This document shows, one piece after another, positions 1,891 to 62,114 of a DNA stretch of 64,000 nucleotides (positions within the stretch are counted from its first letter, which is position 1; every line of letters starts with the position of its first letter). The notes beneath the pieces were generated by a model. The model made no database searches. It worked only from the letters and a program-made list of their open reading frames with translations, and was not told the DNA's origin. The position numbers and the translations under genes were made by a program. The stretch comes from Promethearchaeota archaeon (lineage in GTDB: Archaea; Asgardarchaeota; Lokiarchaeia; Sigyniarchaeales; SOKP01): positions 1,928 through 65,927 of the forward strand of contig JBHLNL010000002.1 of NCBI GenBank assembly GCA_048941605.1. The letters are read 5' to 3'.

Positions 1891-2724
1891 TTATTCAACT
1901 TTCTCTAAATATTGCCAAAGATTTAGTTTTTTTCTTAATTTTTGACCTATTTCTAAAGACTTTTTACCTAACATTTTGATTTCATCAATTGAGAATGTAG
2001 CAGCTCCACTCTTTTGAATTGAGGTAATTTTATCTTCTGTGGTTGAAATCGATATTTTACCATCACAGACTAATTCCTCTGGTAAGCTAGGATCCAAAAA
2101 GATAATGTCTTCAATTTTTCCATATGTTAATACTAAAGGGAGTTCATTTACTATATCTTTTCCTGTTAAATACTTTCCTGTCCATTCAGCTTCACCTTTC
2201 TCTTCATTCCAAATACCTTCAGGGATATGCGAAGAAATTAAGGTTGTTAATGCACTCACTCCACCTGCATCAATTAAATTTCCAGAATAATTAATAACAT
2301 ACATATCAACAAATAAAATATAGACAGCTTTATTCTCTTTTATGCAAAGTTTAGTAGTTTGAACACAATCAGCATGTCGAATTCCACGATCTACGACACG
2401 TGCTAATTCAATTGATTGCTCGTCTGGCGGTCCTCTTTCAAATAAGGGAGATGCTACAGGAAGTAATTCTGCCATAACAGTACAAACTCCTTCATCGGGT
2501 AAATCAGGAAAAGGTTCACCAATTTCGTATTTTAATCCTGTTATTATCCTTGTTTCTCCCAGATTAACATCTGCAGAACCTTCAGCTGAAGAGATTATAT
2601 CGCTTTTTATTTGAAATTCACGATACTCCCAAAGTCCTCTGTCTTCAATTCTTTCTTCTTTTTTCAAATTTGAGAGAATATAATCTCTTTCTATTTTTGA
2701 AATAATTCGTTTAACATCCATCAT
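1891..2724 (-). CDS. rrp42: exosome complex component Rrp42 (RNase PH-like)
   Basis: RNase PH-fold pattern (EDRGLWEYREFQI...AEGSADVNLGETRIITG). It follows rrp41 immediately in the conserved archaeal exosome gene order. Confidence 0.85.
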   Translation of the reverse strand: MMDVKRIISKIERDYILSNLKKEERIEDRGLWEYREFQIKSDIISSAEGSADVNLGETRIITGLKYEIGEPFPDLPDEGVCTVMAELLPVASPLFERGPPDEQSIELARVVDRGIRHADCVQTTKLCIKENKAVYILFVDMYVINYSGNLIDAGGVSALTTLISSHIPEGIWNEEKGEAEWTGKYLTGKDIVNELPLVLTYGKIEDIIFLDPSLPEELVCDGKISISTTEDKITSIQKSGAATFSIDEIKMLGKKSLEIGQKLRKKLNLWQYLEKVE

Positions 2725-2726
2725 TT

Positions 2727-3512
2727 TTAGTTATCACCTACATTTTCTATTTTTACCTTTTCTTTAGATATCTCTTCCTGCAACTTCACATATTTGCTCT
2801 TTAAAGTATTTAGTTGTATTTGGTGAATTTTATTTAATGATTCTTTTGCAAGATCTAAGAATTCATTCATCTCATTCAAATCCATGTCGCCATCAAATTG
2901 CAGTAGTGAGATTTCTTCATTATACCAAGTGATTGCAATAGGAAAGTCTGCTTCTCCTGCTTTGTCTTCAATACCAGAAAGATCCGCTACCCTCTTTCCA
3001 TCAATTTTTCCTACAGCTATAGCGGAAACTAAACTTTTCATAGGAATTCCCGCATCTGCTAATGCTAATGCGGCTACTGTAGTACTTGCACACCTAGTTC
3101 CTCCATCTGCATCCATTACTTCAATAAAAACTTCGAAACTGGTACCAGGATAAAGCTCAAGAAATAAAACAGGTTCTATACAATCTGCTACAATCATAGA
3201 GATTTCTTTTTCGCGCCGTCCAGGTGCTGGTCTTTTTCTATCAAAAACAGAAAAAGTAGCCATTCTATAAAAAACTCTTAAAATTCCTTTATCTGGTTTT
3301 GCTAAATGATGCGGGTGGACTTCTCGTGGTCCATATACAGCAGCAAATATTTTATTATTGCCCCATTCAAGATACGCTGAGCCATCTGCATTTTTTATAA
3401 TACCAACTTCCATTTTTATTGGTCTTAGTTCATTAACATCTCGGCCATCTAGCCTTTTTCCATCTTTACGAAATAAAACATCTGGATACTCATCTTTAAT
3501 AATTAATGGCAT
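2727..3512 (-). CDS. rrp41: exosome complex exonuclease Rrp41 (RNase PH)
   Basis: KRLDGRDVNELRPIKMEVG...ADGSAYLEWGNNKIFAAVYGPRE...DADGGTRCASTTVAALALADAGIPM are typical Rrp41 phosphate-binding and active-site segments. Abuts rrp4 and rrp42. Confidence 0.9.
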   Translation of the reverse strand: MPLIIKDEYPDVLFRKDGKRLDGRDVNELRPIKMEVGIIKNADGSAYLEWGNNKIFAAVYGPREVHPHHLAKPDKGILRVFYRMATFSVFDRKRPAPGRREKEISMIVADCIEPVLFLELYPGTSFEVFIEVMDADGGTRCASTTVAALALADAGIPMKSLVSAIAVGKIDGKRVADLSGIEDKAGEADFPIAITWYNEEISLLQFDGDMDLNEMNEFLDLAKESLNKIHQIQLNTLKSKYVKLQEEISKEKVKIENVGDN

Positions 3513-4307
3513 CTATACTATACCTCTTTTCTTTTTTTCGTTTATTATATAATCTTGCATTCTGTCTGTTAAACCAACAGTATGGGCTTCAGTAGCGATT
3601 TTATTTATTGATTCAATTAATAACCTTTCATGAGCAATATCTTCTCCTTTTAACCAAATTCGGCCATTTTGTGTTACAAAGATATTACATTTAGTTAGAT
3701 TTTTTAACATTTTAATCATTGAACCATTTCTACCAATTACTCTTGGTATTTTTGGTGGATCTATGGTTATAACAATCCCACCCATCTTTTTCCCTAAGTA
3801 TTTTCCAACAGTTGTTAATTCAGGCTTATTTAAACGATCCGCAGAGAGAACCTTTACCACTAAAATATCGCCAATATCAAATCTTTCTGTACTTAAATCC
3901 TCTTGAACTGCTCCACCGCCTCTGAAACCCCTCACTTTACCTTTTTTAATAGTATTTTTTGGTTTAAGTTGACCAAAATCTTTAGCATTTATATCACATT
4001 TGTATTTAACAGGATTTTTATCAACTACTAAAGCTATAACCTTATCTCCAGGACGAGGTGTATAAAAACCCCGTAGAGGAATTACATTAACATAATTCTT
4101 TTTTATTTGTTTTAATCCAATGTTTAAAGAGATAATTTTGTTTCTCTCCTTATTTAATATTGTTCCTCTTCCCGGTAAAAAGTTTGATACATCTTCAGTT
4201 AATACTTCTCCAGGTACAACAACTTCTCTTATAACTTCTTCATCTTCAAAATCTTCGAATTCATCATCTATGTTTCCTTCTTCATCATTTTCCATAGTAG
4301 TACTCAC
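3513..4307 (-). CDS. rrp4: exosome RNA-binding subunit Rrp4 (S1 + KH domains) with acidic N-terminal tail
   Basis: S1-like PGDKVIALVVD and KH-like IPRVIGRNGSMIKMLK segments. Sits between the SBDS and rrp41 genes. Confidence 0.85.
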   Translation of the reverse strand: MSTTMENDEEGNIDDEFEDFEDEEVIREVVVPGEVLTEDVSNFLPGRGTILNKERNKIISLNIGLKQIKKNYVNVIPLRGFYTPRPGDKVIALVVDKNPVKYKCDINAKDFGQLKPKNTIKKGKVRGFRGGGAVQEDLSTERFDIGDILVVKVLSADRLNKPELTTVGKYLGKKMGGIVITIDPPKIPRVIGRNGSMIKMLKNLTKCNIFVTQNGRIWLKGEDIAHERLLIESINKIATEAHTVGLTDRMQDYIINEKKKRGIV

Positions 4308-4386
4308 ATTTTTTCTATAATTATATAATTCTCCTAACCTATACTAAAAAAATAATATAAATGAGATCATTTCAAAAACATTTTGG

Positions 4387-5178
4387 TTAGGCTTTTAATA
4401 TTTTTGTTTGAACTCTTCCATGTGTTAATTTATTTAGTTTATCAACCAATTCCATTTGTAAACCTGCTGGTAAACTCACAACTGCAACCCAAGAACCATC
4501 AGATTGCCACTCTTCCTTCTTAATTTGTACATATTGAGCAACAATGTTATACCCTTTTGCTGTAAAGGCTGTTGGAATCTTTATAGCCATCTCTACTTGC
4601 TCTATTCTAATTGGAATAATAGCTCGAATAGATTTTACAATATCATCAATCTGTTCCTCTGCACTCCTCATTAAATCAATTTTTACTTTTGCTTCTTCAA
4701 TAGCTTTTTCTATCCGTTGGTATGGATGAGGTTTTTTATTCTGTGGATTTATAGCATTTTTACTTATAATAGTTATAATTTGCTTTAATTTCTTCTGCCT
4801 TTCCTCTTCTCTTTGGGCTTTGGTCCAATGAATCTCTCCATCTAGCAAAATATGAGCTGCAATTGTCATTCCATCTGTTGTATTAAATACTACTTCCATA
4901 TCCCCATCAGTTGCTTTTTTGCCTCTTCTTAAGTCTTCAAATACACTAAAAGTCTCAAAAATGAGTTCTAAATTAATTCTGGGATCATTTAACACATCAT
5001 TGACAGTAAGGCGAGATTTATCTTTACCTTCCTTTAATCTTGAACTGATTTCATCTCGTATTAGTTTTTTTGCTTCCCATGCTTGTTCAGGATCCATTAA
5101 CATTTCAAAAATTCTACCAGAATTCTCAATTCGCCCTATAATAAAGCCGCCTAAATCAATTCTTGCTCTGTCGATCAT
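4387..5178 (-). CDS. sdo1: SBDS-family ribosome maturation protein
   Basis: N-terminal FYSH-like segment (GRIFEMLMDPEQAWEAKK) and the conserved position between psmA and rrp4 in the archaeal exosome superoperon. Confidence 0.8.
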   Translation of the reverse strand: MIDRARIDLGGFIIGRIENSGRIFEMLMDPEQAWEAKKLIRDEISSRLKEGKDKSRLTVNDVLNDPRINLELIFETFSVFEDLRRGKKATDGDMEVVFNTTDGMTIAAHILLDGEIHWTKAQREEERQKKLKQIITIISKNAINPQNKKPHPYQRIEKAIEEAKVKIDLMRSAEEQIDDIVKSIRAIIPIRIEQVEMAIKIPTAFTAKGYNIVAQYVQIKKEEWQSDGSWVAVVSLPAGLQMELVDKLNKLTHGRVQTKILKA

Positions 5179-5302
5179 ACTACATTCTCATGCATAAACT
5201 TAATGAATTAACTTAAATCTTGTCCGTTCCTGTTATTTGTCTTTCTGTTAAGAGATAAATATAAAGGGGCAATACCTTGATAATTATATTATTTTAAGGA
5301 GA

Positions 5303-6022
5303 TTATATTTTATTTAATAATTCTTCCTTTTCTTCCAAACTAAGTAGCTTAAACTTTATATCTTCCTTTAATATAAAAGCTACATCACAAGTATTTTTGT
5401 TTAAATTATCACCCATCAATTCTTTCAAAGCTTTTAGAGGTAATAATTTTAATTCTTCATCAATCATATCCTCTTTATAATGTTCCTCAAGGTAAGTTCT
5501 TGCTTCTGCTGCTCCAGAGCCAATAGCAAAAGCTTTATAACCCCACATCGCTCCACTTGGGTCAGTTAAATATAAGGAAGGTCCATTATTTGAGTCTATA
5601 CCAGCAATCAAAAATGATACTCCGAATGGTCTTACACCAGCATTCTGCGTGAAGACTTGTTTATACTCACATATATTTAGAGTGCTATCTTTAACAGAGA
5701 TTCTTTCATCATAATTTAATATATTTACCTGAGCTTGAACTCTAGCCCGGTCAATAAGCACTCTCGCATCAGCTGTAAGTCCCGCAATGGCCACTCCAAT
5801 ATGATCATCAATTTTAAAGATTTTTTCTGAACCTATATCTTGTTCTTGAAGTTCAGAGCTTTTTTTTTCAACTGCAAATACAACCGAATTTTTATTTCTA
5901 CATACTATTGCAGTTGTACCTCTTCGGACGGCTTCAATAGCATATTCAACTTGGAAAAGCCTACCCTCAGGTGAAAATTGGGTAATGGCCATATCATAAC
6001 CTCTTCCTGCTTGCTGGAACAC
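5303..6022 (-). CDS. psmA: proteasome subunit alpha
   Basis: GYDMAITQFSPEGRLFQVEYAIEAVRRGTTAI is the alpha-subunit N-terminal signature. It is the first gene of the exosome superoperon. Confidence 0.9.
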   Translation of the reverse strand: MFQQAGRGYDMAITQFSPEGRLFQVEYAIEAVRRGTTAIVCRNKNSVVFAVEKKSSELQEQDIGSEKIFKIDDHIGVAIAGLTADARVLIDRARVQAQVNILNYDERISVKDSTLNICEYKQVFTQNAGVRPFGVSFLIAGIDSNNGPSLYLTDPSGAMWGYKAFAIGSGAAEARTYLEEHYKEDMIDEELKLLPLKALKELMGDNLNKNTCDVAFILKEDIKFKLLSLEEKEELLNKI

Positions 6023-8493: not shown

Positions 8494-8598
8494 GCAGACG
8501 TAGCCTAGCTGGTAAGACGCCGGCCTTGAGATTTTCAGTAGTCAAGCAAGCTAGCCGGTGCGCGTAAGCGCTCGGGGGTTCGAATCCCTCCGTCTGCG
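8494..8598 (+). tRNA. tRNA-Ser (anticodon UGA), class II, with a 22-nt intron at 37/38 (8531..8552)
   Basis: Acceptor GCAGACG/CGTCTGC plus G. Anticodon stem CCGGC/GCCGG, loop CTTGAG|..|A. The intron gives a BHB: CTTG pairs with CAAG (8547..8550), bulges AG|A and CT|A. Long variable arm TGCGCGTAAGCGCTC; T-arm GGGGGTTCGAATCCCTC. Confidence 0.85.
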
Positions 8599-10042: not shown

Positions 10043-10933
10043 TTATAAATATTGAAAAACAATTTCAAAATCTGAGAAATCAAAGGGTTTTAATATATAG
10101 CCATCCGCCATAGTTTCCGCCATCTTTTTTTCTACTTCTGATCCTGGTATAGCAGTTAACAAATAAACAGGGATCTCTTGATACTTTTCATGTTCCTTAA
10201 TCATTTTGCAAATCTCATAACCCGAAATATCCGGGAGTATGACATCCAGTAAAATTAACTTGGGAACACCACCTCTTATTTCTTCTATTCCTTTGGTTCC
10301 ACTTATTACGCCTTTACATTTGTAACCTTTGCTCTCAAAATAACTTGTAAGAAGTCGGATCGTGGCTAAATCATCTTCAATTAAGAGGATATCATATTGT
10401 GGATGAGGTTCTTCAGTAGCAATTTTATCCAAGATGTTAATGATTTTATTTTCAAGGAGTAAACTTTGATCAAAGATGTTTTTAATAGTTAATAAGACAT
10501 CTTCATTCAATTCGTCAGCGTAATTTTCTAGAAGGAGCTGACTAAAACCTTTTATTGTGGTGAGTGGTTCCTTTAAAGCATGAGAGATATTAGAAATTGT
10601 CTTTTCATCCATTTTTTGTAGTTTATCGCTTAAAAGGTCAGATTTTTGTTCAATATAATAATCTACACTCTCTCTAATAAGAGCTGATATTGTAGAGTAT
10701 TCCTTTTTTTCTTTAAATTTTTGCCATTGGTCTTTTGTTTCTTCTGATACATACAAAGAGATCCTTTCTTTGTCTCTATCATAGATTTTCTCTCCTTTTA
10801 ACCATTTTTTAAAACCTTCAGTAATAGAACCCCGCCAGATGGCGTATTTGTCAGTTTTTTCTTGATATTCTTTCATCAATTCTTTAACTTCTTTACTATC
10901 TAAGTCGAGTTTATCGATCTCCTCATCTGTCAT
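10043..10933 (-). CDS. RHH-like + HisKA(DHp)-like + receiver (REC) domain protein, no HATPase domain
   Basis: ERISLYVSEETKDQWQKF...STISALIRESVDYYI is ribbon-helix-helix-like. ISHALKEPLTTIKGFSQLL is an H-box. ILLIEDD...LILLDVILPDISG...LLTA...YILKPF carries the REC D/D/T/K positions. Confidence 0.7.
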   Translation of the reverse strand: MTDEEIDKLDLDSKEVKELMKEYQEKTDKYAIWRGSITEGFKKWLKGEKIYDRDKERISLYVSEETKDQWQKFKEKKEYSTISALIRESVDYYIEQKSDLLSDKLQKMDEKTISNISHALKEPLTTIKGFSQLLLENYADELNEDVLLTIKNIFDQSLLLENKIINILDKIATEEPHPQYDILLIEDDLATIRLLTSYFESKGYKCKGVISGTKGIEEIRGGVPKLILLDVILPDISGYEICKMIKEHEKYQEIPVYLLTAIPGSEVEKKMAETMADGYILKPFDFSDFEIVFQYL

Positions 10934-11253: not shown

Positions 11254-12126
11254 TTAACTTTTCTTCAAAATATCAAAAATTACTTCAAAATCAGAAAAGT
11301 TAAATGGTTTTAATATATATCCATCTGCCTTTGTATCTACTAAGTTCTTTTCTACTTCACTACCCGCAATAGCAGTCAAAAAAAATAAAGGAATGTGTTC
11401 CCATTCTTTATCTGATTTAATCGTTTTACATATATCATATCCACTCAGATCAGGTAAAATAATATCTAATAAAATTAGTTTTGGAATTGTATTGCCAAGT
11501 TCCTCCAAACCCTTTGAACCACTTACAACGCCTTTACATTTAAATCCTTTACTGTCAAAATAACTTGTTATTAATCGTATTGTTGCGAGATCGTCTTCAA
11601 TTAATAAAACATCGTATTCAGACTCCACTTTTATATTATCTAAGATATTAATAATTTTTTTTTCAAGAAGGATGCTCTGCTCAAAAATATTTTTTACAGT
11701 CTCTAAAACTTGGGAGTTTAACTTTTCTCTGTAATTCTCAAGAAGTAGCTGCGAATAACCTTTAATAGAAGTTAAAGGTTCTTTTAATGTATGAGAAATT
11801 GTCGAGATGGTTTGAGGATTTAATCTAGAAAGTTTATTTTTAGTATTATTTGATTTACTTTCTATAAAGGTAGAAACCGCTTCCCTAATTAATTTAGAAA
11901 TCGTTAAATCTCCATTATTTTTAGTATATTCTAACCATTTTGATTTTGTATCCTCTGATACATACAAAGAAATACGTTCTTTATCTCGATGATATACTTT
12001 TTCCCCTTTTTGCCACTTTCTAAAACCTTCAGTCACGACTCCACGCCAGATCGCATATCTACCAGTTTCTTTCTCATATCTCTTCATTTCCTCTGATTTT
12101 TCAGTGTAGTTCTCATTGTTATTCAT
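11254..12126 (-). CDS. RHH-like + HisKA(DHp)-like + receiver (REC) domain protein, paralog of 10043..10933
   Basis: Same architecture and collinear similarity (YAIWRGVVTEGFRKWQKGEKVYHRDKERISLYVSEDTKSKW; ISHTLKEPLTSIKGYSQLL; VLLIEDDLATIRL...LILLDIILPDLSG...YILKPFNFSDFEVIF). Confidence 0.7.
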   Translation of the reverse strand: MNNNENYTEKSEEMKRYEKETGRYAIWRGVVTEGFRKWQKGEKVYHRDKERISLYVSEDTKSKWLEYTKNNGDLTISKLIREAVSTFIESKSNNTKNKLSRLNPQTISTISHTLKEPLTSIKGYSQLLLENYREKLNSQVLETVKNIFEQSILLEKKIINILDNIKVESEYDVLLIEDDLATIRLITSYFDSKGFKCKGVVSGSKGLEELGNTIPKLILLDIILPDLSGYDICKTIKSDKEWEHIPLFFLTAIAGSEVEKNLVDTKADGYILKPFNFSDFEVIFDILKKS

Positions 12127-14344: not shown

Positions 14345-15073
14345 TTAGTTTTGATGCCCTGTTCGACGAGCTGCTATCTGTCCAACCTTCCTACCTGGAG
14401 GAGCATTACGAGAAGTAGTAGTTGGCTTATGTGGTGATTGTTTTGCACCACCACCGTAAGGATGACTAGCTGCTGTCATAGCAACACCACGAACTACAGG
14501 CCATTTCTTAGCTTTAGATTTTACATAATGAAATTTATTACCAGCTTTTAAGAATGGTTTATCTGTTCTTCCACCTCCCGCAACAACTCCTACTGTAGCT
14601 AAACAATTTTCGTTGATCCATTTGGTTTTTTTTGACCGAAATAATAATTCAACATTCTTTCCAGATCTGTTTCTCACGATCGCAGCAACTCCAGAAGATC
14701 GTGCGAATTTACCCCCATCTTGCGGAGTTGATTCAATGTTAAACACTAAAGTCCCTAATGGCATCTTTTTCAGAGGTAGGACATTTCCAACCTCTACTGT
14801 TTGACCATATCCAGTTTGAGATTGTATAAATTCCTGTCCAATAAAAATTCCTTCTGGTGGGAGCCAAAGTCCCTTTTCACCATCATCATATTGAATTCGA
14901 GCTACTGGAGCACCTCTTCCTGGGGAATGGATGAGATCTATTACTTTAAATTTGAATAATTTCTCATTTTTCCGAAACGAGCGATACTTGACGGCCCCTA
15001 TGTGTCTATGACTAGGGCTTCTAAATCCAAGGACACCTCTGCCTTTCCTTTGAGCTAAAATTCGTTTTCCCAA
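14345..15073 (-). CDS. rpl2: 50S ribosomal protein uL2
   Basis: MGKRILAQRKGRG...HSPGRGAPVARIQYDDG...GNVLPLKKMPLGTLVFNIE...AGGGRTDKPFLKAGNKFH...VRGVAMTAASHPYGGG are unambiguous uL2 motifs. Confidence 0.92.
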   Translation of the reverse strand: MGKRILAQRKGRGVLGFRSPSHRHIGAVKYRSFRKNEKLFKFKVIDLIHSPGRGAPVARIQYDDGEKGLWLPPEGIFIGQEFIQSQTGYGQTVEVGNVLPLKKMPLGTLVFNIESTPQDGGKFARSSGVAAIVRNRSGKNVELLFRSKKTKWINENCLATVGVVAGGGRTDKPFLKAGNKFHYVKSKAKKWPVVRGVAMTAASHPYGGGAKQSPHKPTTTSRNAPPGRKVGQIAARRTGHQN

Positions 15074-18538: not shown

Positions 18539-19612
18539 TTATTTTAAATAATAAATGCCATTGTTTTGAGTAATCTCAGTATGCTCTGAAAGATAATCTA
18601 TTAACATTTGTTTTTGCTTAATATTTTTTTCTATAGTTAGGTCAATTCGAAATGATAGATCTTTAAGGTTCTCAATTCTAATCCAATGCAATTTGTTAAA
18701 GAATTGCATTATTTTACTAAGAAAGTCTTCTTGTGTGCCAAATTTTTGCAAATCTTTTTCTATTGTTTTAATCCATTTATTAAAAGCAGTTTTAGTTTTA
18801 AAACTTATAAATATTTCATTATCTTCTGCTAAATTCATCCATAAATATTTATCTTTATCCTCAAGTACTCTATTGTAATTTACCATAAAATCGACGTTTT
18901 CTTTTATCAGTTTTAATCGTTCTTTCTTAGCTAATTCCTTTTTAAATAATAGATCTGTTTCTATAAGATCTAATCTGCAATAATAACCTGCTGGAGAATA
19001 AATAAAATCAGTTACTCTGACCCCTAGTATACCAAAAACAGCTGCAAAAAATTTGCAATTTTCAAAATGCAGATTTTTAAATTTTCCAATAAATTCTAAA
19101 ATCGCTTTGGCAGGTCTATTATCTTTAGAAGGAATTATTTCCAATTGCATATCTTTAGATACCGTAGTAGTGGCATATCTACTTCTTATCTTTTCAAAAA
19201 ATAATTTAGCATCTTTAAAATTATTAGTTTTAACCTCTTTATTGAAGAAATCTCGATACATTAATAAAAATCGTGTGTTAAATTCAAATGAAAAATGTGT
19301 ATATTTATTAGGTTCAATTGCCATTTCATAAAGTGGAATTGTTGCTTTAAAAGTGAATCGATCGAAGAAATCCTTAATCTTTTTATCTTCTACTCTCTTA
19401 AAGTCATCAATTGTTTTTCCTTCTTCAAATAATTTCAATATATTTTCTATAATATAATTGTAAAAACTTGAAATACTTTTATATCTCTCATCATTAGGGT
19501 TTTTCATGTGTTTCACATTTACATATCTTTTCACCCATTCTTTAATAGCTGGAGATGTTGAAATGGTTTGTTGAGTTGTTCTCTTATTTGATAAATATTT
19601 TTTTGGAGACAT
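18539..19612 (-). CDS. hypothetical protein, family A paralog 1 (N-terminal RHH-like segment)
   Basis: Collinear similarity to 22985..24070 (TTQQTISTSPAIKEWVKRYV / ITQQTISISPALKDRIEKYV; KSISSFYNYIIE / KSISAFYNYVLE; FENCKFFAAVFGILG / FENCKYNAALFGLLG; FFNKLHWIRIE / FFEKLHWIEIE). Confidence 0.55.
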   Translation of the reverse strand: MSPKKYLSNKRTTQQTISTSPAIKEWVKRYVNVKHMKNPNDERYKSISSFYNYIIENILKLFEEGKTIDDFKRVEDKKIKDFFDRFTFKATIPLYEMAIEPNKYTHFSFEFNTRFLLMYRDFFNKEVKTNNFKDAKLFFEKIRSRYATTTVSKDMQLEIIPSKDNRPAKAILEFIGKFKNLHFENCKFFAAVFGILGVRVTDFIYSPAGYYCRLDLIETDLLFKKELAKKERLKLIKENVDFMVNYNRVLEDKDKYLWMNLAEDNEIFISFKTKTAFNKWIKTIEKDLQKFGTQEDFLSKIMQFFNKLHWIRIENLKDLSFRIDLTIEKNIKQKQMLIDYLSEHTEITQNNGIYYLK

Positions 19613-22984: not shown

Positions 22985-24070
22985 TTATTCAATAAGTTTT
23001 TTTAATTGAAATTTACCATCTATTTGTAAAATATTTGATTTTTTTGATAGTATCTCAAATAAAAATTTTCTTTCATTTTGGAATTTTATATTTGATAATT
23101 TTATTTGAAAGATTAGATCTTTTTTACTTTCGATTTCAATCCAATGTAGTTTTTCAAAAAACTTCAAGAGATTAAGAGTATACTCCTCACGATCACTAAA
23201 TTTATCTATTTCGTTTTCTGTTAAATTTACCCAATCTTTTTGAATTTCTTCGTTGTTAAAATTGATGATAACATTTCTATCTCCAGCTAACCTCATCCAA
23301 AAATAATAATCCTTATCATCTAAAATTCTAGGATAATTGAAGAAATAAGATAGATTATGGTTAACTAGTTCAACCCTCTCTTTTTTTGCCAAGTCTTTTC
23401 TATAAAACAAATCTGTGGTTTTTAAGTTGAACCTGAAATAGTTATCTTTATCTGAATATAGAAAATTAGTTATTTTAGCACCTAACAAACCAAAAAGTGC
23501 TGCATTGTATTTGCAATTTTCAAATGTTAAATTTTTGTATAATCCAGAATATTCAAATATTCCAGTTAATCCTTTTCCCTTCTTTCCAGTAAAGATATCC
23601 AAATTTACTTCCTTGGTAAGATTTTGTGAAATTAAATAGTTTTTAACTCTATTGAATATACTCTTTATACTAGCAATATCATAAGGATCCATTCGATCCA
23701 AATAAAGCCTTCTTAGAGTTAAATAAAAAAAGGTGTTTTTTTCAAAGAATGGATGTGTATAACGATTTGTCCTTATAGCAGTTTCATAATAAGGAATTAA
23801 GGCATTAAAGGAAATTTTATCGAAAAATCCCTTAATTTCACTGTCTACAAAAGATTTAAAGTCATCAAGTGTTTTACGTTGGTCAAAACAATCCATAGTT
23901 TTTTCCAAAACATAATTGTAAAAAGCCGAGATACTTTTAACCCGATTATCGTTCGGATATTTGTTTTGATTTTCAATTACATATTTTTCTATTCGATCTT
24001 TCAATGCAGGGGAAATAGAAATTGTCTGCTGGGTTATTTTTTTTCTTGATAAAGGTCTTTCTGAAGTCAT
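22985..24070 (-). CDS. hypothetical protein, family A paralog 2 (N-terminal RHH-like segment)
   Basis: Collinear full-length similarity to 18539..19612 (see that entry). Confidence 0.55.
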   Translation of the reverse strand: MTSERPLSRKKITQQTISISPALKDRIEKYVIENQNKYPNDNRVKSISAFYNYVLEKTMDCFDQRKTLDDFKSFVDSEIKGFFDKISFNALIPYYETAIRTNRYTHPFFEKNTFFYLTLRRLYLDRMDPYDIASIKSIFNRVKNYLISQNLTKEVNLDIFTGKKGKGLTGIFEYSGLYKNLTFENCKYNAALFGLLGAKITNFLYSDKDNYFRFNLKTTDLFYRKDLAKKERVELVNHNLSYFFNYPRILDDKDYYFWMRLAGDRNVIINFNNEEIQKDWVNLTENEIDKFSDREEYTLNLLKFFEKLHWIEIESKKDLIFQIKLSNIKFQNERKFLFEILSKKSNILQIDGKFQLKKLIE

Positions 24071-29056: not shown

Positions 29057-29755
29057 ATGTCTAAAATAGAAATTAGAAATCATCCTAAATTTTCCAATGT
29101 TTTTATATCTGGCCCTCCAGAAAAATTGAGACTTTATACAAGAAATTTAGATGTAGGAAAAAGGATATACGGTGAGAGATTGATAAATTATAAGGGTATC
29201 GAGTATAGAGAATGGGATCCATTTAGAAGTAAATTAGCTGCATTAATTTTGGAAAACCCTATGACAAATTTTTTATCAGATAATTTAAAATGTTTATATT
29301 TAGGAGCTTCATCAGGCACATCTATATCTCATCTTTCAGATATTATACCTTCTGGAATCATCTACGGAGTAGAATTTGCAGAAAGAAGTATGAGGCAACT
29401 AATTCAAAATAGTTCAAATCGAAAAAATATTATTCCAATCTTAGGAGATGCACGGTTTCCGGGTAGTTATGGTAAACATATATTTACTAACATAGATTTA
29501 ATTTATCAAGATGTTGCACAACCACGACAAGCTGAGATTGCGTTGGAAAATTGCACTTATTACTTAAAAAATGAAGGAGTTTTGGTTATTGCTATCAAAT
29601 CTCAATCAATTGACAGTATTCAAAAATCAGAACTGACTTTTGCTCAAGAGAAAAAAATACTCGAAACCGCAGGATATATCATACTAGAGAGTATTAATAT
29701 CCATAAATATGCTGCAAATCATATTATATTAATCGTTAAAAAAGAAACTAATTAA
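29057..29755 (+). CDS. flpA: fibrillarin-like rRNA/tRNA 2'-O-methyltransferase
   Basis: YREWDPFRSKLAA...LYLGASSGTSISHLSDI...IYQDVAQPRQAEI fibrillarin motifs. Paired with nop5. Confidence 0.9.
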   Translation: MSKIEIRNHPKFSNVFISGPPEKLRLYTRNLDVGKRIYGERLINYKGIEYREWDPFRSKLAALILENPMTNFLSDNLKCLYLGASSGTSISHLSDIIPSGIIYGVEFAERSMRQLIQNSSNRKNIIPILGDARFPGSYGKHIFTNIDLIYQDVAQPRQAEIALENCTYYLKNEGVLVIAIKSQSIDSIQKSELTFAQEKKILETAGYIILESINIHKYAANHIILIVKKETN

Positions 29756-30381
29756 GAAAGTCAGTGATTTTTTTATTAGAGATCTCTTCATTTATTATTT
29801 TTTTGGTTGTATCCCAGGATTTTCTCGCAAACTTGGGCACTTTTTTATTTCTTTTTATATAATTTCTTAGGAATTCAATTGTTCTAACATCGGAAGGGTA
29901 ACCCGAACCAAATTCTCCATATTTTTCATTGAGTTCTTCAACTATTGCATCCCTTTTGTCTTTGGCTATTATGGACCCCGCTGAAACAATTGGATATATA
30001 TCATCGGCCTTATGTTTGGAAATTATTTTTTTAGGAGAATAATTTAGTAATCTTTCTATTGATTTACCAAATCTTTTTTCATTTACGTCAGCAGCATCTA
30101 AATAAATAGTATCTGGTTTCAAATTATTAATAATTTCTGCCATCTTAATTTCTTCAAGTCGGTTCATGGTAATTTTATTAACTTCTCTCTCATCAATCTC
30201 TTGAGGACTAATTACAATAATTTTATGTGAGTGGCAATTATCTTTCAAGATATGAGCTAATTCACTTCTCTTTTTTGGAGATAATTTTTTTGAGTCTTTA
30301 ACACCTATTTCAGATAAAAAACTAAGTTTAGATTTATAAAAGCATATACCACATAAAACCATGGGACCTAAGACAGAGCCT
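29748..30381 (-). CDS. rnhB: ribonuclease HII, exon 2 (the tracked ORF starts at an internal ATG, 30389)
   Basis: GSVLGPMVLCGI...GVKDSKKLSPKKR...YLDAADV...KADDIYPIVSAGSIIAK...GSGYPSD are RNase HII motifs. The N-terminal GIDEAGR motif is missing from this ORF and is found upstream (see exon 1). Confidence 0.85.
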
Positions 30382-30411
30382 ACTGACATTTAATTCGATT
30401 TGAATTAAATT
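30382..30411 (-). other. 30-nt intervening sequence in rnhB with a bulge-helix-bulge (BHB) fold; candidate mRNA intron
   Basis: In-frame ATT TAA TTC AAA TCG AAT TAA ATG TCA GTA lies between ..GIDEAGR and GSVLGP... Perfect 9-bp palindrome at 30388..30410. Central helix UGGU/GUCA, bulges AG|A and GU|A, outer helix GAGGC/GGCTC. Confidence 0.65.
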
Positions 30412-30491
30412 CTACCAGCCTCGTCTATCCCACATATTAGTTCTGTTTCATCCTCATGAATCTTGAATGAGTTCAATGAATTCTTCTTCAT
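30412..30491 (-). CDS. rnhB: ribonuclease HII, exon 1 (start ATG 30491 or TTG 30476; uncertain)
   Basis: Same frame as exon 2. Reads MKKNSLNSFKIHEDETELICGIDEAG(R), containing the catalytic DE of the RNase HII N-terminal motif. Overlaps the 3' end of the upstream gene in another frame. Confidence 0.6.
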
Positions 30492-31455
30492 CATCTACTT
30501 CTTCAAGGTTTTTAATTTTAACAATAGGAATATTTGTTTTTTTAAACGGTTCAGGAATTTTGATATCATTGTCTATTATGAAAAGTGAAGTTTTATGGAA
30601 TAAATCTGTGAACATTTTTAAGCAATGAAAGCTCATCTCATTGATTTTACCTTGTTCCTCAGAGATACCAGAAAATAGAGGATAAAACCCATCAAATTTT
30701 ATTTTATCAGAGTGAGAGTATAACGATAATTTGAAAGGTATTGATCCTTTCTTATACCAATAAGAAGAAAGCCCTATGTCTTTTATTATATCTTGAACAT
30801 GGGATTCAAATTCACTTAATTCTTTTTCTTCCAATAATTCTTTTTCTTCTGTATAATCCTTAATAGTCCACCCAAAAACGTTAATTTTTTTAAATAGTTC
30901 ATTACTGTTTAAGATTTCTAATATTCTTTCAGCAATTTTCTCAGAAGGTCTCATAGATTCATTTTCATATGAACAAATAGTCCGCTTAGTCACTCCTAAG
31001 ACTTCTGATAATTCCTTTCTTGTTATTGAATAGTTTTCTCTCAAGGTTTTCATCAAAGCACCATCTAAAAATACTACCCCACCACCTCTTCTTGCTAAGA
31101 TATAAGGGTATTTATCACTTAGGATATTCTCAAATGTGTTTAGTGTTATAAAGGGTAAACCTTCTCTTACATAAATAGTATTATCTTCTAATTTTTGATA
31201 TCGATTTCTAATTCCAATTAATAATGGTTTTGATTTGAGGATTAAGGATAAAGATTTAATATCACGAATTGTATCTTGATTCAGGTTATCTATATTAGGA
31301 AAAATTTTAATACTAAATACTAAATCATCTTTTTTAACTAAAAGATCAAAACAGAATTTACTTTTTGTAGTGGCAAAATTACCCAATGCTAATGTTTCAT
31401 AATTTGCTTTTTTTAACAAGCTGTCAATTCTTTGAATTATCTTTTCAATCATCAA
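30454..31455 (-). CDS. HTH (XRE-type) domain protein, putative transcriptional regulator
   Basis: Central YSITRKELSEVLGVTKRTICSYENESMRPSEKIAERI is an XRE/HTH_3 pattern. The flanking domains are unassigned. Confidence 0.6.
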   Translation of the reverse strand: MMIEKIIQRIDSLLKKANYETLALGNFATTKSKFCFDLLVKKDDLVFSIKIFPNIDNLNQDTIRDIKSLSLILKSKPLLIGIRNRYQKLEDNTIYVREGLPFITLNTFENILSDKYPYILARRGGGVVFLDGALMKTLRENYSITRKELSEVLGVTKRTICSYENESMRPSEKIAERILEILNSNELFKKINVFGWTIKDYTEEKELLEEKELSEFESHVQDIIKDIGLSSYWYKKGSIPFKLSLYSHSDKIKFDGFYPLFSGISEEQGKINEMSFHCLKMFTDLFHKTSLFIIDNDIKIPEPFKKTNIPIVKIKNLEEVDDEEEFIELIQDS

Positions 31456-58788: not shown

Positions 58789-60261
58789 ATGAATGTTAAT
58801 AAAATTGCTGACAATATCTATGAGATTCCTCCAAAAACTTTAATGACACGGATTAAAGGAAATATCGAGAAATTTCAGATGATTGTTCCTGTAAAAATTT
58901 ATGCAAATGATTACATTTTAGAAAAAATACGTTTAGATCGTACGTTAGACCAGATATGTAATGTTGCATGTTTACCCGGTATAAAGAAACATGCTATTGC
59001 TCTTTCGGATGCTCATCAAGGATATGGATTTTGTATAGGGGGCGTTGCTGGGACAGATGCAGAGGATGGAATGATTTCTCCTGGTGGTGTTGGATATGAT
59101 ATTAATTGTGGTGTAAGACTATTAAAATCTAATTTATTTCTTAAAGATATCAAGAATGTACTTCCAAAGCTGTTAAATACAATTTTTAATAATATCCCCT
59201 CAGGTTTAGGATCGAAAGGTAAATTAAACATAGGCTATTCAGAATTAGATAAAGTTTTAAATAATGGGGTGAATTGGGCTTTTGATAATGATTATGCATT
59301 AGAAGAGGATCTTAAACATTTAGAAGAAAATGGATGTTTAAAGGATGCTGATGCTAGTTTAGTTTCACAAAAAGCGAAACAGCGAGCTATAAAACAGCTT
59401 GGTTCTTTAGGAAGTGGAAATCACTTTCTTGAAATACAAAAAGTTGATCAAATTTATAATGAGGGTATTGCTAAAGCTATGGGAATTTATGAAAAGAATC
59501 AAATTACAATTATGGTTCACACAGGAAGTAGAGCTCTTGGACATCAAGTATGTACAGATTCTTTGCGCAGTATTGAACAGGCAATGAAAGAATACAATAT
59601 AAAAGTTCCTGATAGAGAATTAGCTTGTGTTCCTGCAAATACATCTGAAGCACAAAACTATTTGAAACAGATGTCATGTGCTGCTAATTTTGGATTTACA
59701 AATCGTCAATTAATCACTCATTGGTTAAGAGAATCCTTTCAAAATACCTTTAAAAAAGATATAGACGATTTGGATTTACATTTAATCTATGGTGTTTGCC
59801 ATAATATTTTGAAAATAGAAGAACATGAAATTGATGGAAAAAAAGTGAAATTAAATGTTCATAGAAAAGGTGCAACTAGAGCATTTCCACCAGAACATCC
59901 TGTTCTACCATCTGAGTATAAATCTATTGGTCAGCCTGCATTAATCCCAGGAACGATGGGTTCTGCTTCTTATCTTTGTGTAGGTAAAAAGAATGCTATG
60001 GATCTGTCATTTGGTTCTACTGCGCATGGCTCTGGAAGAGTTATGTCTAGAGCTAAAGCTACTAAGAAATATTGGGGAGAACGAGTTAAAGATAGCCTAA
60101 GTAAACAAGGTATAATGGTGAAAGCTGCTTCGATGAAAGTAATCGCTGAAGAGGCTCCTGGGGCATATAAAGATATTGATCAAGTTGTTCAAGTAAGTCA
60201 TGATCTAGGAATTGTTGAAAAAGTAGTAAGATTAGTTCCTGTAGGTGTGGTAAAGGGCTAA
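58789..60261 (+). CDS. rtcB: RNA-splicing ligase RtcB
   Basis: LPGIKKHAIALSDAHQGYGFCIGGV...GGVGYDINCGVRLL...GSGNHFLEIQ...HTGSRALGH...CHNI...HRKGATRA...STAHGSGR are diagnostic RtcB motifs. No intein. Confidence 0.93.
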   Translation: MNVNKIADNIYEIPPKTLMTRIKGNIEKFQMIVPVKIYANDYILEKIRLDRTLDQICNVACLPGIKKHAIALSDAHQGYGFCIGGVAGTDAEDGMISPGGVGYDINCGVRLLKSNLFLKDIKNVLPKLLNTIFNNIPSGLGSKGKLNIGYSELDKVLNNGVNWAFDNDYALEEDLKHLEENGCLKDADASLVSQKAKQRAIKQLGSLGSGNHFLEIQKVDQIYNEGIAKAMGIYEKNQITIMVHTGSRALGHQVCTDSLRSIEQAMKEYNIKVPDRELACVPANTSEAQNYLKQMSCAANFGFTNRQLITHWLRESFQNTFKKDIDDLDLHLIYGVCHNILKIEEHEIDGKKVKLNVHRKGATRAFPPEHPVLPSEYKSIGQPALIPGTMGSASYLCVGKKNAMDLSFGSTAHGSGRVMSRAKATKKYWGERVKDSLSKQGIMVKAASMKVIAEEAPGAYKDIDQVVQVSHDLGIVEKVVRLVPVGVVKG

Positions 60262-60269
60262 ATTCTTAT

Positions 60270-60707
60270 TTAGATATCAAAAACAATATTTATTTTTACA
60301 TTATTCTTTTTTTCTTCGATCTTCATGAAAGAATAAGTTATAGCTTTGACTTCTGTACCTGGTTCATGTTTTTGTTTATCAAATTTTTCTCCAGAAGCAT
60401 GTGCTTTTAAAAAATATTTTCCTTTATCTTTTTTTATAGGGTGAATACTTATTTTGTTAAATATAAGTTCTTCTACATCAAAAAGATAAAGGAATTCTGA
60501 AAGGAAATCAAATAATAATGCTTCTTTATCTTCTGCTTCAATTTTTATAGTTCTATCAATTTTTGGAGTTATTATTTTTAAACTGGGTGTAATTGTTTCC
60601 ATTAAACTATATGCTGTTTGCTCAAAAGCTTCTTCCAAGGAATTGCCCCGAATTTCAACTGAAACATCAGCAGTGTGATTCAGAAATTTATACCCTGCTT
60701 TTTTCAT
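60270..60707 (-). CDS. archease (RtcB activator)
   Basis: YKFLNHTADVSVEIRGNSLEEAFEQTAYSLMETI...VKAITYS pattern and size (145 aa). Convergent with rtcB, 8 nt apart. Confidence 0.85.
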   Translation of the reverse strand: MKKAGYKFLNHTADVSVEIRGNSLEEAFEQTAYSLMETITPSLKIITPKIDRTIKIEAEDKEALLFDFLSEFLYLFDVEELIFNKISIHPIKKDKGKYFLKAHASGEKFDKQKHEPGTEVKAITYSFMKIEEKKNNVKINIVFDI

Positions 60708-61343: not shown

Positions 61344-62114
61344 TTACCATGGTACATCTTTTAAACCTATGAAATAAGCTACTGTATTCGCAATAATACT
61401 TACAGCAGGGGTTAAAATTATCAAAAAAACTAGGATAAAAGTATCTGGTAATAAAAACAGATTTGGTGCAATAAAACCAGGGATTGAGATAAATAATAAT
61501 GCAACTAAGGCAAAATCAAGTTGATCTACTATCCAAAAAGGAGCTCCGCTTTTAATATCAAATCTCCTTTTAAAAAATGAACCTATCAAATCACCTAATA
61601 CAGCCCCATATGAGGCTAAAACAATTCTTATAATTAAGACAAGGAAATTAATTGGAAATTCTCCACCTATAAAATAATATTCAAAAACTTTCATATTGTT
61701 ATATAGAATATATTGTCCTGAGGCAGCCGCATCCCCAATAACCTCCTGAATCGGTAACCATAAACCATTAAAAAGGAGAAAAATGCAGAAAGAAATAGGA
61801 ATTCCAATATATAAAGGTCCTTTTAGTCCTTTCCAAGTTTTATGATCCCCTAGGATTCTCCTTCCATCACGGAAATTTCTCCCACCATCAATAGGTTTAC
61901 CTCCACCAGTGATAACCATTGAAGCATTTGAAATGTAAGCTGGAACAATGATAAGAAGGCTAAATATCAATAGAGCAACCCAATCAGCCCAATTAAAAAT
62001 AAACGAAATTACAAGAAAATTAGCTAAAATTAATGTTGCAAATACTATTGCTAAAATTATAGCAACCTTTTTATTATTTTTTTCAGTATCTCTACGATAA
62101 ATTTCAGCTGGCAA
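61344..62114 (-). CDS. carS: CDP-archaeol synthase (CarS, DUF46 family)
   Basis: GGGKPIDGGRNFRDGRRILGDHKTWKGLKG plus a polytopic membrane body match the CarS cytoplasmic-loop signature. Confidence 0.8.
   Translation of the reverse strand: MPAEIYRRDTEKNNKKVAIILAIVFATLILANFLVISFIFNWADWVALLIFSLLIIVPAYISNASMVITGGGKPIDGGRNFRDGRRILGDHKTWKGLKGPLYIGIPISFCIFLLFNGLWLPIQEVIGDAAASGQYILYNNMKVFEYYFIGGEFPINFLVLIIRIVLASYGAVLGDLIGSFFKRRFDIKSGAPFWIVDQLDFALVALLFISIPGFIAPNLFLLPDTFILVFLIILTPAVSIIANTVAYFIGLKDVPW

Follow-up and report, generated by a model that had tools for sequence, protein, structure and literature searches.

In a Promethearchaeota archaeon of the Lokiarchaeia (GenBank assembly GCA_048941605.1), the rnhB gene for ribonuclease (RNase) HII is interrupted by 30 nt that very probably constitute a bulge-helix-bulge (BHB) intron, processed at the RNA level by the tRNA-splicing machinery. 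The insert lies at 30382..30411 on the minus strand of the 64,000-nt stretch of DNA analysed here (contig JBHLNL010000002.1, positions 1,928 to 65,927; hereafter the window, in which positions are given). We favour this interpretation because excision restores the reading frame exactly, the insert is conserved in 38 genomes, its structure covaries, exon 1 is under selection, and the insert is precisely absent from 21 relatives. It is this comparative evidence, and not the geometry of the motif, that decides for a BHB intron. An original prediction made from the letters of the window had proposed such an intron in rnhB; the comparative data support it, and from them we infer splicing itself, that is, cleavage and ligation in vivo with the splicing endonuclease EndA as the nuclease.

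The split rnhB reading frame and its BHB motif

On the minus strand of the window, the open reading frame (ORF) at 29748..30389 opens with MSVGSVLGPMV according to the ORF listing, and a separate ORF at 30405..30494 (ATG at 30494) encodes MMKKNSLNSFKIHEDETELICGIDEAGRI before its stop codon. Translation from the ATG at 30494 yields MMKKNSLNSFKIHEDETELICGIDEAGR, followed by Ile and a stop; 30 bases further on, GSVLGPMV... resumes and continues to the stop codon at 29748. Both the start of the downstream ORF and the upstream stretch in the same frame therefore read as originally described. The sequence between the two halves is ATT TAA TTC AAA TCG AAT TAA ATG TCA GTA, with two in-frame TAA codons, and the break falls after GIDEAGR, inside the catalytic motif. 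The proposal that deletion of 30 nt would reunite GIDEAGR with GSVLGPMV was borne out in silico, as removal of 30382..30411 results in an open frame of 238 aa reading ...GIDEAGRGSVLGPMV... The spliced product matches the Pfam RNase_HII model over its entire length (E 5.9e-49, model positions 1-199 of 199, starting at residue 21). Furthermore, it is collinear with the solved RNase HII structures of Thermococcus and Pyrococcus (PDB 1io2, 2dfh), residues 20-238 of the query aligning with 3-218 of the chain, and the alignment is gapless at the junction (ICGIDEAGRGSVLGPMV versus IAGIDEAGRGPVIGPMV). The segments of the gene and of the motif are listed below.

30412..30494, minus strand: rnhB exon 1, from the ATG at 30494 to the AG of the split Arg codon; encodes MMKKNSLNSFKIHEDETELICGIDEAG(R)
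30382..30411, minus strand: rnhB intervening sequence (proposed BHB intron), AAUUUAAUUCAAAUCGAAUUAAAUGUCAGU, 30 nt with two in-frame UAA codons
29748..30381, minus strand: rnhB exon 2, the third Arg base (A), then GGC UCU GUC... (GSVLGPMV...), to the stop codon
30418..30422, minus strand: outer helix h, 5' strand, GAGGC, in exon 1; four of five pairs with 30376..30380 in the window
30376..30380, minus strand: outer helix h, 3' strand, GGCUC, in exon 2
30414..30417, minus strand: central helix H, 5' strand, UGGU, in exon 1 (last base of the Ala codon plus all of the Gly codon); partners 30384..30387
30384..30387, minus strand: central helix H, 3' strand, GUCA, in the intron
30411..30413, minus strand: 5' bulge B1, AGA; predicted cut after AG, between 30412 and 30411
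30381..30383, minus strand: 3' bulge B2, GUA; predicted cut after GU, between 30382 and 30381; the last base is the third position of the Arg codon
30388..30410, minus strand: inner hairpin h', AUUUAAUUC, loop AAAUC, GAAUUAAAU; nine of nine pairs in the window

Two 3-nt bulges (AGA and GUA) are located on opposite strands with a 4-bp helix between them (UGGU/GUCA, two Watson-Crick and two G.U pairs), and helices flank this core on both sides (outer h and inner h'). The bulge of each strand lies 3' of its central-helix segment, which is the right polarity for archaeal splicing. The ends of the intron were set by placing a cut behind the second nucleotide in both bulges, and cutting and joining at these places in silico produces the complete RNase_HII coding sequence. 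A cut between the second and third bulge nucleotides is the rule stated for the intron of the cbf5 gene (PMC2738675). The hBHBh' fold had been drawn by hand in the original prediction, and its helices, bulges and loop are accurate base for base.

Distribution of the insert among Asgard relatives

A scan with one genome per species retrieved 62 loci, almost all from metagenome-assembled genomes of Promethearchaeota (Asgard). Comparison with related genomes, in which the insert could be present, absent or co-varying, had been put forward as a check, and the outcome strongly favours an intron. The insert interrupts the same codon at the identical site (after GIDEAG and AG) in 38 genomes, comprising 37 fetched loci and the window, and is 30 nt long in 37 of these carriers and 29 nt in one (L063). 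Another 21 Asgard relatives lack it to the base and contain an uninterrupted GIDEAGRGPVLGP; the compensatory changes within the insert are described below.

When the spliced proteins were placed in a neighbour-joining (NJ) tree, most branches, deep ones among them, contained carriers of the insert, and the insert-free proteins formed one large clade plus scattered tips. Fitch parsimony over 100 bootstrap NJ trees, all built on this single short gene, gave 4-6 changes in 94 trees and at least three in 99. Given its presence in deep branches and the four to six changes, the intron appears to be an ancient one in the Lokiarchaeia-type Asgard lineage and would have been lost precisely on several occasions.

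The taxonomic labels of some loci look inconsistent. Ten of them (L004, L009, L010, L013, L017, L028, L036, L047, L049 and L052) are labelled as Hod-, Hermod-, Odin- or Thorarchaeota, and the RNase HII encoded there is 62-78% identical to that of the window. L035 (DATKTW010000134.1) is probably mis-binned: its label reads 'Candidatus Nanopelagicaceae bacterium', but its rnhB is of the Asgard type, has no insert and shares 70% identity with that of the window. In L030 and L052, runs of N, either masked bases or gaps in the scaffold, begin approximately 10-40 nt past the intron, which may be coincidence or assembler trouble at the hairpin.

Conservation and covariation of the structure

The structure was evaluated in an alignment (A1) of 33 distinct junction sequences, with pairing counted per cell. 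The BHB register is paired in 88.9% of cells, compared with 22.6-44.4% when the 3' partners are slid by one to three columns, and the central helix by itself is paired in 93.9%. Compensatory double changes were identified at seven pairs, two in the central exon-intron helix (e.g. UGGU/GUCA to AGGG/CCUU in L048) and five in the inner hairpin (e.g. AUAUGAUCC/GGAUUGUAU in L060), and none of 500 column shuffles reached the observed values. RNAalifold recovered both the central helix and the inner hairpin with no structure supplied.

Across the 38 carriers, the central helix contains four of four pairs in 30 and three of four in eight, and the inner hairpin has 7-9 of its nine pairs in every carrier. 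The 5' bulge reads AGA in 37 carriers and AGG in one. The 3' bulge is more variable in its letters (AAA in 22, ACA in 10, AUA in three, and GUA, AGG and ACG in one each), but its third base is always a purine, so that the rejoined codon is always AGR and encodes Arg. The outer helix stands as originally drawn with four of its five pairs, but the register chosen for it is not the best conserved one: the canonical register is paired in 83% of cells, and a 7-pair register shifted by one base, which is the form that RNAalifold draws, in 98.7%. This shifted helix varies solely by G-C/G-U changes, because both of its strands are coding.

The residue after GRG is Ser in 21 of the 38 carriers and Pro in all 21 non-carriers (window 30376..30381, minus strand). 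Ser (UCN) betters pairing in the canonical outer helix by placing A-U where A.C would stand; GRGS is also found in an unrelated archaeon that has no insert. In the hairpin loop, the last two bases (UC; A1 columns 31-32, window 30397..30398, minus strand) are near invariant and the first three vary, and the BHB model does not explain the near-invariance of UC.

A UAA or UGA stop in frame, two codons inside the insert, is common to all 33 aligned sequences (A1 columns 22-24; window 30405..30407, minus strand). This early stop is situated in the inner helix; the structure may explain it, or it could reflect selection for fast termination on unspliced mRNA. A stop at this place is also compatible with programmed translational bypassing, known from phage T4 gene 60 and the yeast mitochondrial byp elements, in which the ribosome would hop over the insert. 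For such a hop, the invariant UAA or UGA would lie two codons past the putative take-off site, a stable hairpin directly follows, and known bypass elements span a range of gap sizes that includes 30 nt. The codons, however, are not those that this mechanism requires. Take-off and landing codons need to be matched, and the codon before the Gly codon is AAA, ACA, AUA or GUA in 31 of the 33 sequences, not AGR; a hop from Gly to Gly would drop the conserved Arg-Gly, and the two Gly codons belong to different decoding boxes in 9 of 33. Bypassing also leaves the covariation of the central helix unexplained and, to our knowledge, has not been described in archaea. We regard it as extremely improbable.

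Selection on the exons and a 29-nt variant

Judging from the substitution pattern among 36 carriers, exon 1 is under strong purifying selection: over its last nine full codons, synonymous divergence (pS) is 0.58 and non-synonymous divergence (pN) 0.05, corresponding to a pN/pS of 0.087. The first 40 codons of exon 2 have a pN/pS of 0.317. In addition, the ATG-initiated exon-1 ORF is kept in 38 of 38 carriers. The selection and the retained start codon together indicate that exon 1 continues to be translated, in the frame that leads on into the rest of the RNase HII motif.

Carriers also differ from non-carriers in codon choice at this site. The Glu codon is GAG in all 38 carriers versus 15 of 21 non-carriers, the third position of the Val codon is A in 1/37 versus 7/21, and that of the Gly codon is A in no carrier versus 11/21. 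Synonymous sites predicted to pair thus appear restricted in carriers, although lineage-specific codon usage could contribute.

L063, the locus with the 29-nt insert, is the source of a database protein (P0115) whose N-terminus is exon 1 translated in a shifted frame, from which the reading continues into exon 2. One base is gone there from the 3' arm of the inner hairpin, which places the exons in different genomic frames. L063 retains synteny and an intact exon-1 ORF (MMKRNSLNSSKIHDGRSQLICGIDEAGR), and BHB excision joins its exons in frame in silico. A frame offset of this kind is predicted by an RNA intron and fits no model that reads through the insert.

These data also bear on a trivial origin of the split, i.e. 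a pseudogene disrupted by a short inserted stretch or a palindromic mobile element, or an artefact of assembly. It is true that two in-frame stops break a conserved catalytic motif and that the insert is a near-perfect palindrome. Yet it occupies the same base in 38 species-level genomes that were assembled independently, purifying selection acts on both exons, and its length is fixed at 29-30 nt with compensatory changes. A mobile element is further contradicted by the single-copy state of the insert, of which no dispersed copies were found in the window or at any locus, and a pseudogene by the lack of a second rnhB in the 64-kb window. A trivial origin is effectively refuted, and the scenario that the original prediction had set against itself, a pseudogene with no conserved BHB, is excluded by the conserved BHB, the selection and the 38 assemblies.

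Arguments against splicing and the annotated alternative

Several results weigh against a spliced BHB intron. The central helix is rich in G.U pairs, and in Pro-type genes the outer helix is weak in its canonical register, with two to three of five pairs. For the window sequence, the BHB conformer has a folding energy of -7.9 kcal/mol, whereas an irregular hairpin with paired bulge bases reaches -19.0 kcal/mol. Only 2 of the 33 sequences have the BHB as their minimum free energy (MFE) fold, the BHB-constrained fold lies at a median of 5.6 kcal/mol above the MFE, and the BHB is not predicted to be the stable fold of the precursor. The folding check suggested in the original prediction hence turned out negative, the nearest-neighbour MFE fold not being the BHB conformer. 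BHB-like geometry alone occurs at chance frequency and is insufficient as evidence. A strict hBHBh' scan of the window (G+C content 28.7%; minimum inner helix 9 bp, maximum intron length 60 nt) detected two motifs compared with a mean of 2.2 in 20 dinucleotide shuffles, and loose BHB criteria gave 652 matches. Searches for the spliced form were likewise unfavourable. No full-length Ser-type (GRGS) protein, which would outrank shorter forms, is among the best 120 of 3531 homologues. A 74-aa junction query of proteins returned only short GRGP fragments or shorter exon-2 forms, and the sole match in a metagenome scan with the spliced junction was an unrelated archaeon with a natural GRGS. Finally, no gene for EndA was found in the 64-kb window.

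Against the folding argument it can be held that a stable BHB fold is not, strictly speaking, part of the definition, since EndA binds the motif and gives it its shape, and that the competing folds are not conserved (70.9% versus 93.9% of cells paired). Since the competing folds are unconserved, the rnhB motif may represent a weak, G.U-rich substrate that depends on protein binding, which possibly hints at inefficient or regulated splicing.

As for chance, it is the position of the rnhB motif, not its geometry, that makes it non-random. The odds of a chance motif cutting at the sole place that restores both the frame and GRG are approximately 2.2/128,000 (~2e-5), as estimated from the strict scan. 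In a joint test for a BHB combined with fusion of two open frames split by stops, the rnhB site ranks first in the window, and this joint scan revealed no other convincing site there. The second strict motif (30889..30918, plus strand; 30 nt, 9-bp inner helix) is AT-rich, lies antisense in an intact HTH gene and is most likely a chance occurrence. Two further genes considered as possibly interrupted were rejected: uL2 at 14345..14764 is intact with a non-ATG start, and the open frame of a CarS-like gene at 61344..61919 continues upstream.

The low stability of the canonical BHB conformer, together with an outer helix that fits better with a 4-nt 3' bulge, would also be in line with removal of the insert from RNA by a structure-specific nuclease and ligase other than EndA and RtcB. 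No other machinery for cutting out and rejoining pieces of mRNA is known to us from archaea. The features conserved in the insert are those that EndA needs, i.e. a 4-bp helix between 3-nt bulges on opposite strands, and the cuts that restore the frame are at EndA positions. Moreover, an EndA type with broad specificity has been reported for Asgard archaea (PMC5829648). Removal by a different pair of enzymes is accordingly improbable.

Public records annotate 29748..30389 as a 213-aa 'ribonuclease HII'; the protein P0001 of this name is 100% identical to the ORF, and 213-aa forms that start in the insert account for 40 of the best 120 homologue clusters. Taken literally, exon 2 would be translated alone from a start in the insert, with or without a 29-aa exon-1 peptide acting in trans, and no splicing would take place. 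The agreement of gene callers and NCBI on this product and the failure of protein searches to find the spliced one are in keeping with such an arrangement, which would also tolerate the 29-nt variant, and 27 of the 38 carriers have an in-frame ATG, GTG or TTG three codons before the Gly codon. This start is not conserved, however: nine of the 38 lack any start codon up to and including the Gly codon, and in three of the carriers none follows within 12 codons past it either. The apparent start codon can be explained as a by-product of the helix, its AU being the end of the inner arm and its G the first base of the central helix. In addition, the 213-aa product is without the Asp-Glu of GIDEAGRG, which are encoded in exon 1 and are two of the four catalytic carboxylates in Thermococcus RNase HII. 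The covarying exon-intron helix and the constant 3-nt bulges are also left unexplained. Independent translation of exon 2 is thus quite unlikely, and an RNA-level BHB intron is the interpretation followed below.

Proposed splicing pathway and machinery

In the proposed pathway, rnhB would be transcribed with the insert included, and UGGU of exon 1 would pair with GUCA of the intron to form the 4-bp central helix. Next to this helix would lie the bulges AGA and GUA, and beyond them the 9-bp hairpin of the intron towards the inside and a helix between the two exons towards the outside. EndA would cleave past the second nucleotide of both bulges, and RtcB and archease would ligate ...GGU AG to A GGC UCU..., giving a predicted spliced junction at which ...GCUGGUAG is joined to AGGCUCUGUC... 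The joined mRNA would encode a full-length RNase HII of 238 aa with an intact GIDEAGRG, whereas from unspliced mRNA only the 29-aa peptide would be made, perhaps along with a 213-aa fragment devoid of the motif's Asp-Glu. As the junction Arg is a trypsin site, the predicted tryptic peptide following it is GSVLGPMVLCGICFYK, and the preceding one would end in ...ICGIDEAGR.

Components of the expected machinery and a tRNA substrate are encoded in the window.

8494..8598, plus strand: tRNA-Ser(UGA), Rfam tRNA, 44.6 bits, 105 nt
58789..60261, plus strand: RtcB RNA ligase, Pfam RtcB E 1.4e-169, model positions 1-426 of 426
60270..60707, minus strand: archease (RtcB cofactor), Pfam Archease E 2.6e-44

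The presence of RtcB and archease, noted in the original prediction, was confirmed by these Pfam matches. The two genes are arranged tail to tail, 8 bp apart, at a distance of approximately 28 kb from the split rnhB. The tRNA-Ser(UGA) contains a 22-nt intron at 8531..8552, which was also predicted correctly with its AGA 5' bulge and can be read in the sequence as a canonical BHB. Its central helix CUUG/CAAG is a perfect 4 bp, and the bulges AGA and CUA are cut after AG and CU, respectively. ARAGORN missed this intron-containing tRNA and Rfam caught it. The tRNA intron would constitute in-genome evidence for an acting splicing endonuclease. Asgard archaea have been reported to possess an (alpha-beta)2 EndA with an L1 loop and broad specificity, like the Crenarchaeota that splice cbf5 (PMC5829648), and the presence of EndA in this archaeon is implied by this literature together with the tRNA-Ser BHB intron.

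The weak, G.U-rich BHB outside the MFE fold and the invariant stop two codons into the intron suggest a broader reading, which we put forward as a single joint claim and consider doubtful. The intron could serve as a regulatory device that makes the output of active RNase HII dependent on the capacity of EndA, RtcB and archease. It could at the same time be an Asgard counterpart of XBP1/HAC1-like, RtcB-dependent mRNA splicing that predates eukaryotes, and the first example of a larger group of BHB introns that annotation has missed in protein-coding genes of Asgard archaea.

Comparison with known introns

The cbf5 intron was reportedly studied by Watanabe (2002), Yoshinari (2006) and Yokobori (2009). 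Like the proposed rnhB intron, it is a short BHB intron within a gene that encodes a protein, in this case of Crenarchaeota (Desulfurococcales and Sulfolobales), and the two have a common cut rule, between the second and third bulge nucleotides (PMC2738675). The cbf5 intron is located at the codon of a catalytic Asp and the rnhB intron likewise within the codons of a catalytic motif; in both cases removal is required for a functional enzyme, and both introns are routinely mis-annotated in genome records. They are also alike in their history of ancestral gain followed by precise, lineage-specific losses (PMC2738675), and the hosts of cbf5 introns have a hetero-oligomeric EndA of broad specificity, the same type as reported for Asgard archaea (PMC5829648). 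In contrast, the rnhB intron resides in a different gene and in Asgard archaea instead of Crenarchaeota, which points to independent acquisition. Most cbf5 introns are described as forming an unconventional, relaxed BHB, whereas that of rnhB is a full hBHBh' with a weak, G.U-rich central helix; and cbf5 introns have been confirmed by cDNA sequencing and in vitro cleavage, whereas the rnhB intron is known from sequence. Homologous membership in the cbf5 type can be rejected, the host gene encoding RNase HII and the hosts being Promethearchaeota, and the rnhB intron is an analogue, not a homologue, of the cbf5 intron.

The tRNA-Ser(UGA) intron of the same genome resembles the rnhB intron in its hBHBh' form, cut rule and AGA 5' bulge and in the expected involvement of EndA, RtcB and archease. 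The central helix of the tRNA intron consists of four Watson-Crick pairs and is part of the MFE fold, whereas that of rnhB includes two G.U pairs and lies outside the MFE fold. Furthermore, and unlike tRNA BHB introns in general, the rnhB intron would be excised from an mRNA substrate with no tRNA body.

HAC1/XBP1 splicing resembles the rnhB proposal in mechanism, as a short mRNA intron is cut by a structure-recognising endonuclease and a tRNA ligase (RtcB in metazoa) joins the exons, with a change of the reading frame or the product. The XBP1 intron is 26 nt long. The HAC1/XBP1 system differs in its IRE1 nuclease, its twin stem-loops and its regulation by stress, and, apart from the use of RtcB, the resemblance does not imply common ancestry.

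Another mRNA element is the BHB intron in the 5' untranslated region (UTR) of Haloferax volcanii HVO_1309, which is also handled by the splicing endonuclease and whose removal appears to matter for expression (PMC7714728). This element differs from the rnhB intron in lying in an untranslated leader, where it interrupts no reading frame, and in occurring in a euryarchaeon with a different type of EndA. The same 2020 paper names cbf5 as the only other reported BHB intron in an archaeal mRNA besides the HVO_1309 5'UTR (PMC7714728), and a 2025 paper on archaeal splicing endonucleases still cites cbf5 work only. Full-text literature searches brought up no mention of a BHB intron for rnhB or for any protein-coding gene of Asgard archaea, which, with their incomplete coverage, is absence of evidence only. 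The rnhB intron would thus extend a known mechanism to a new gene and a new lineage.

With a second protein-coding gene whose reading frame contains a BHB intron, mRNA processing by the tRNA-splicing machinery would be shown to extend beyond Crenarchaeota. As the carriers comprise dozens of species of the archaeal lineage closest to eukaryotes, the intron is relevant to a pre-eukaryotic origin of mRNA splicing by protein enzymes (RtcB, TSEN). With its 30 nt, it also offers a small natural substrate suited to the biochemistry of Asgard EndA. The deposition of RNase HII as a 213-aa protein without two catalytic residues is a systematic annotation error, and gene callers will miss similar introns, which makes it worthwhile to scan Asgard genomes systematically for conserved genes with interruptions.

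Genomic context of rnhB and other features of the window

The 3' end of the HTH gene upstream of rnhB overlaps exon 1 by 41 nt (30454..30494, minus strand). The protein encoded by this gene (332 aa) has an HTH_3 match in the window, and its L063 homologue has a precomputed PDDEXK_19 match. The gene order CBS-HTH, PDDEXK-HTH and rnhB, followed by convergent fibrillarin and Nop5 genes, is kept in L063.

Elsewhere in the window, two apparent pairs of paralogues were observed on the minus strand: 10043..10933 and 11254..12126, with similar N-termini (...YAIWRG...), and 18539..19612 and 22985..24070, also with similar N-termini (...QQTIS.SPA.K...). In addition, a cluster of exosome-like (RNase PH-type) and proteasome alpha-like ORFs was recognised by eye at 1891..5992 on the minus strand.

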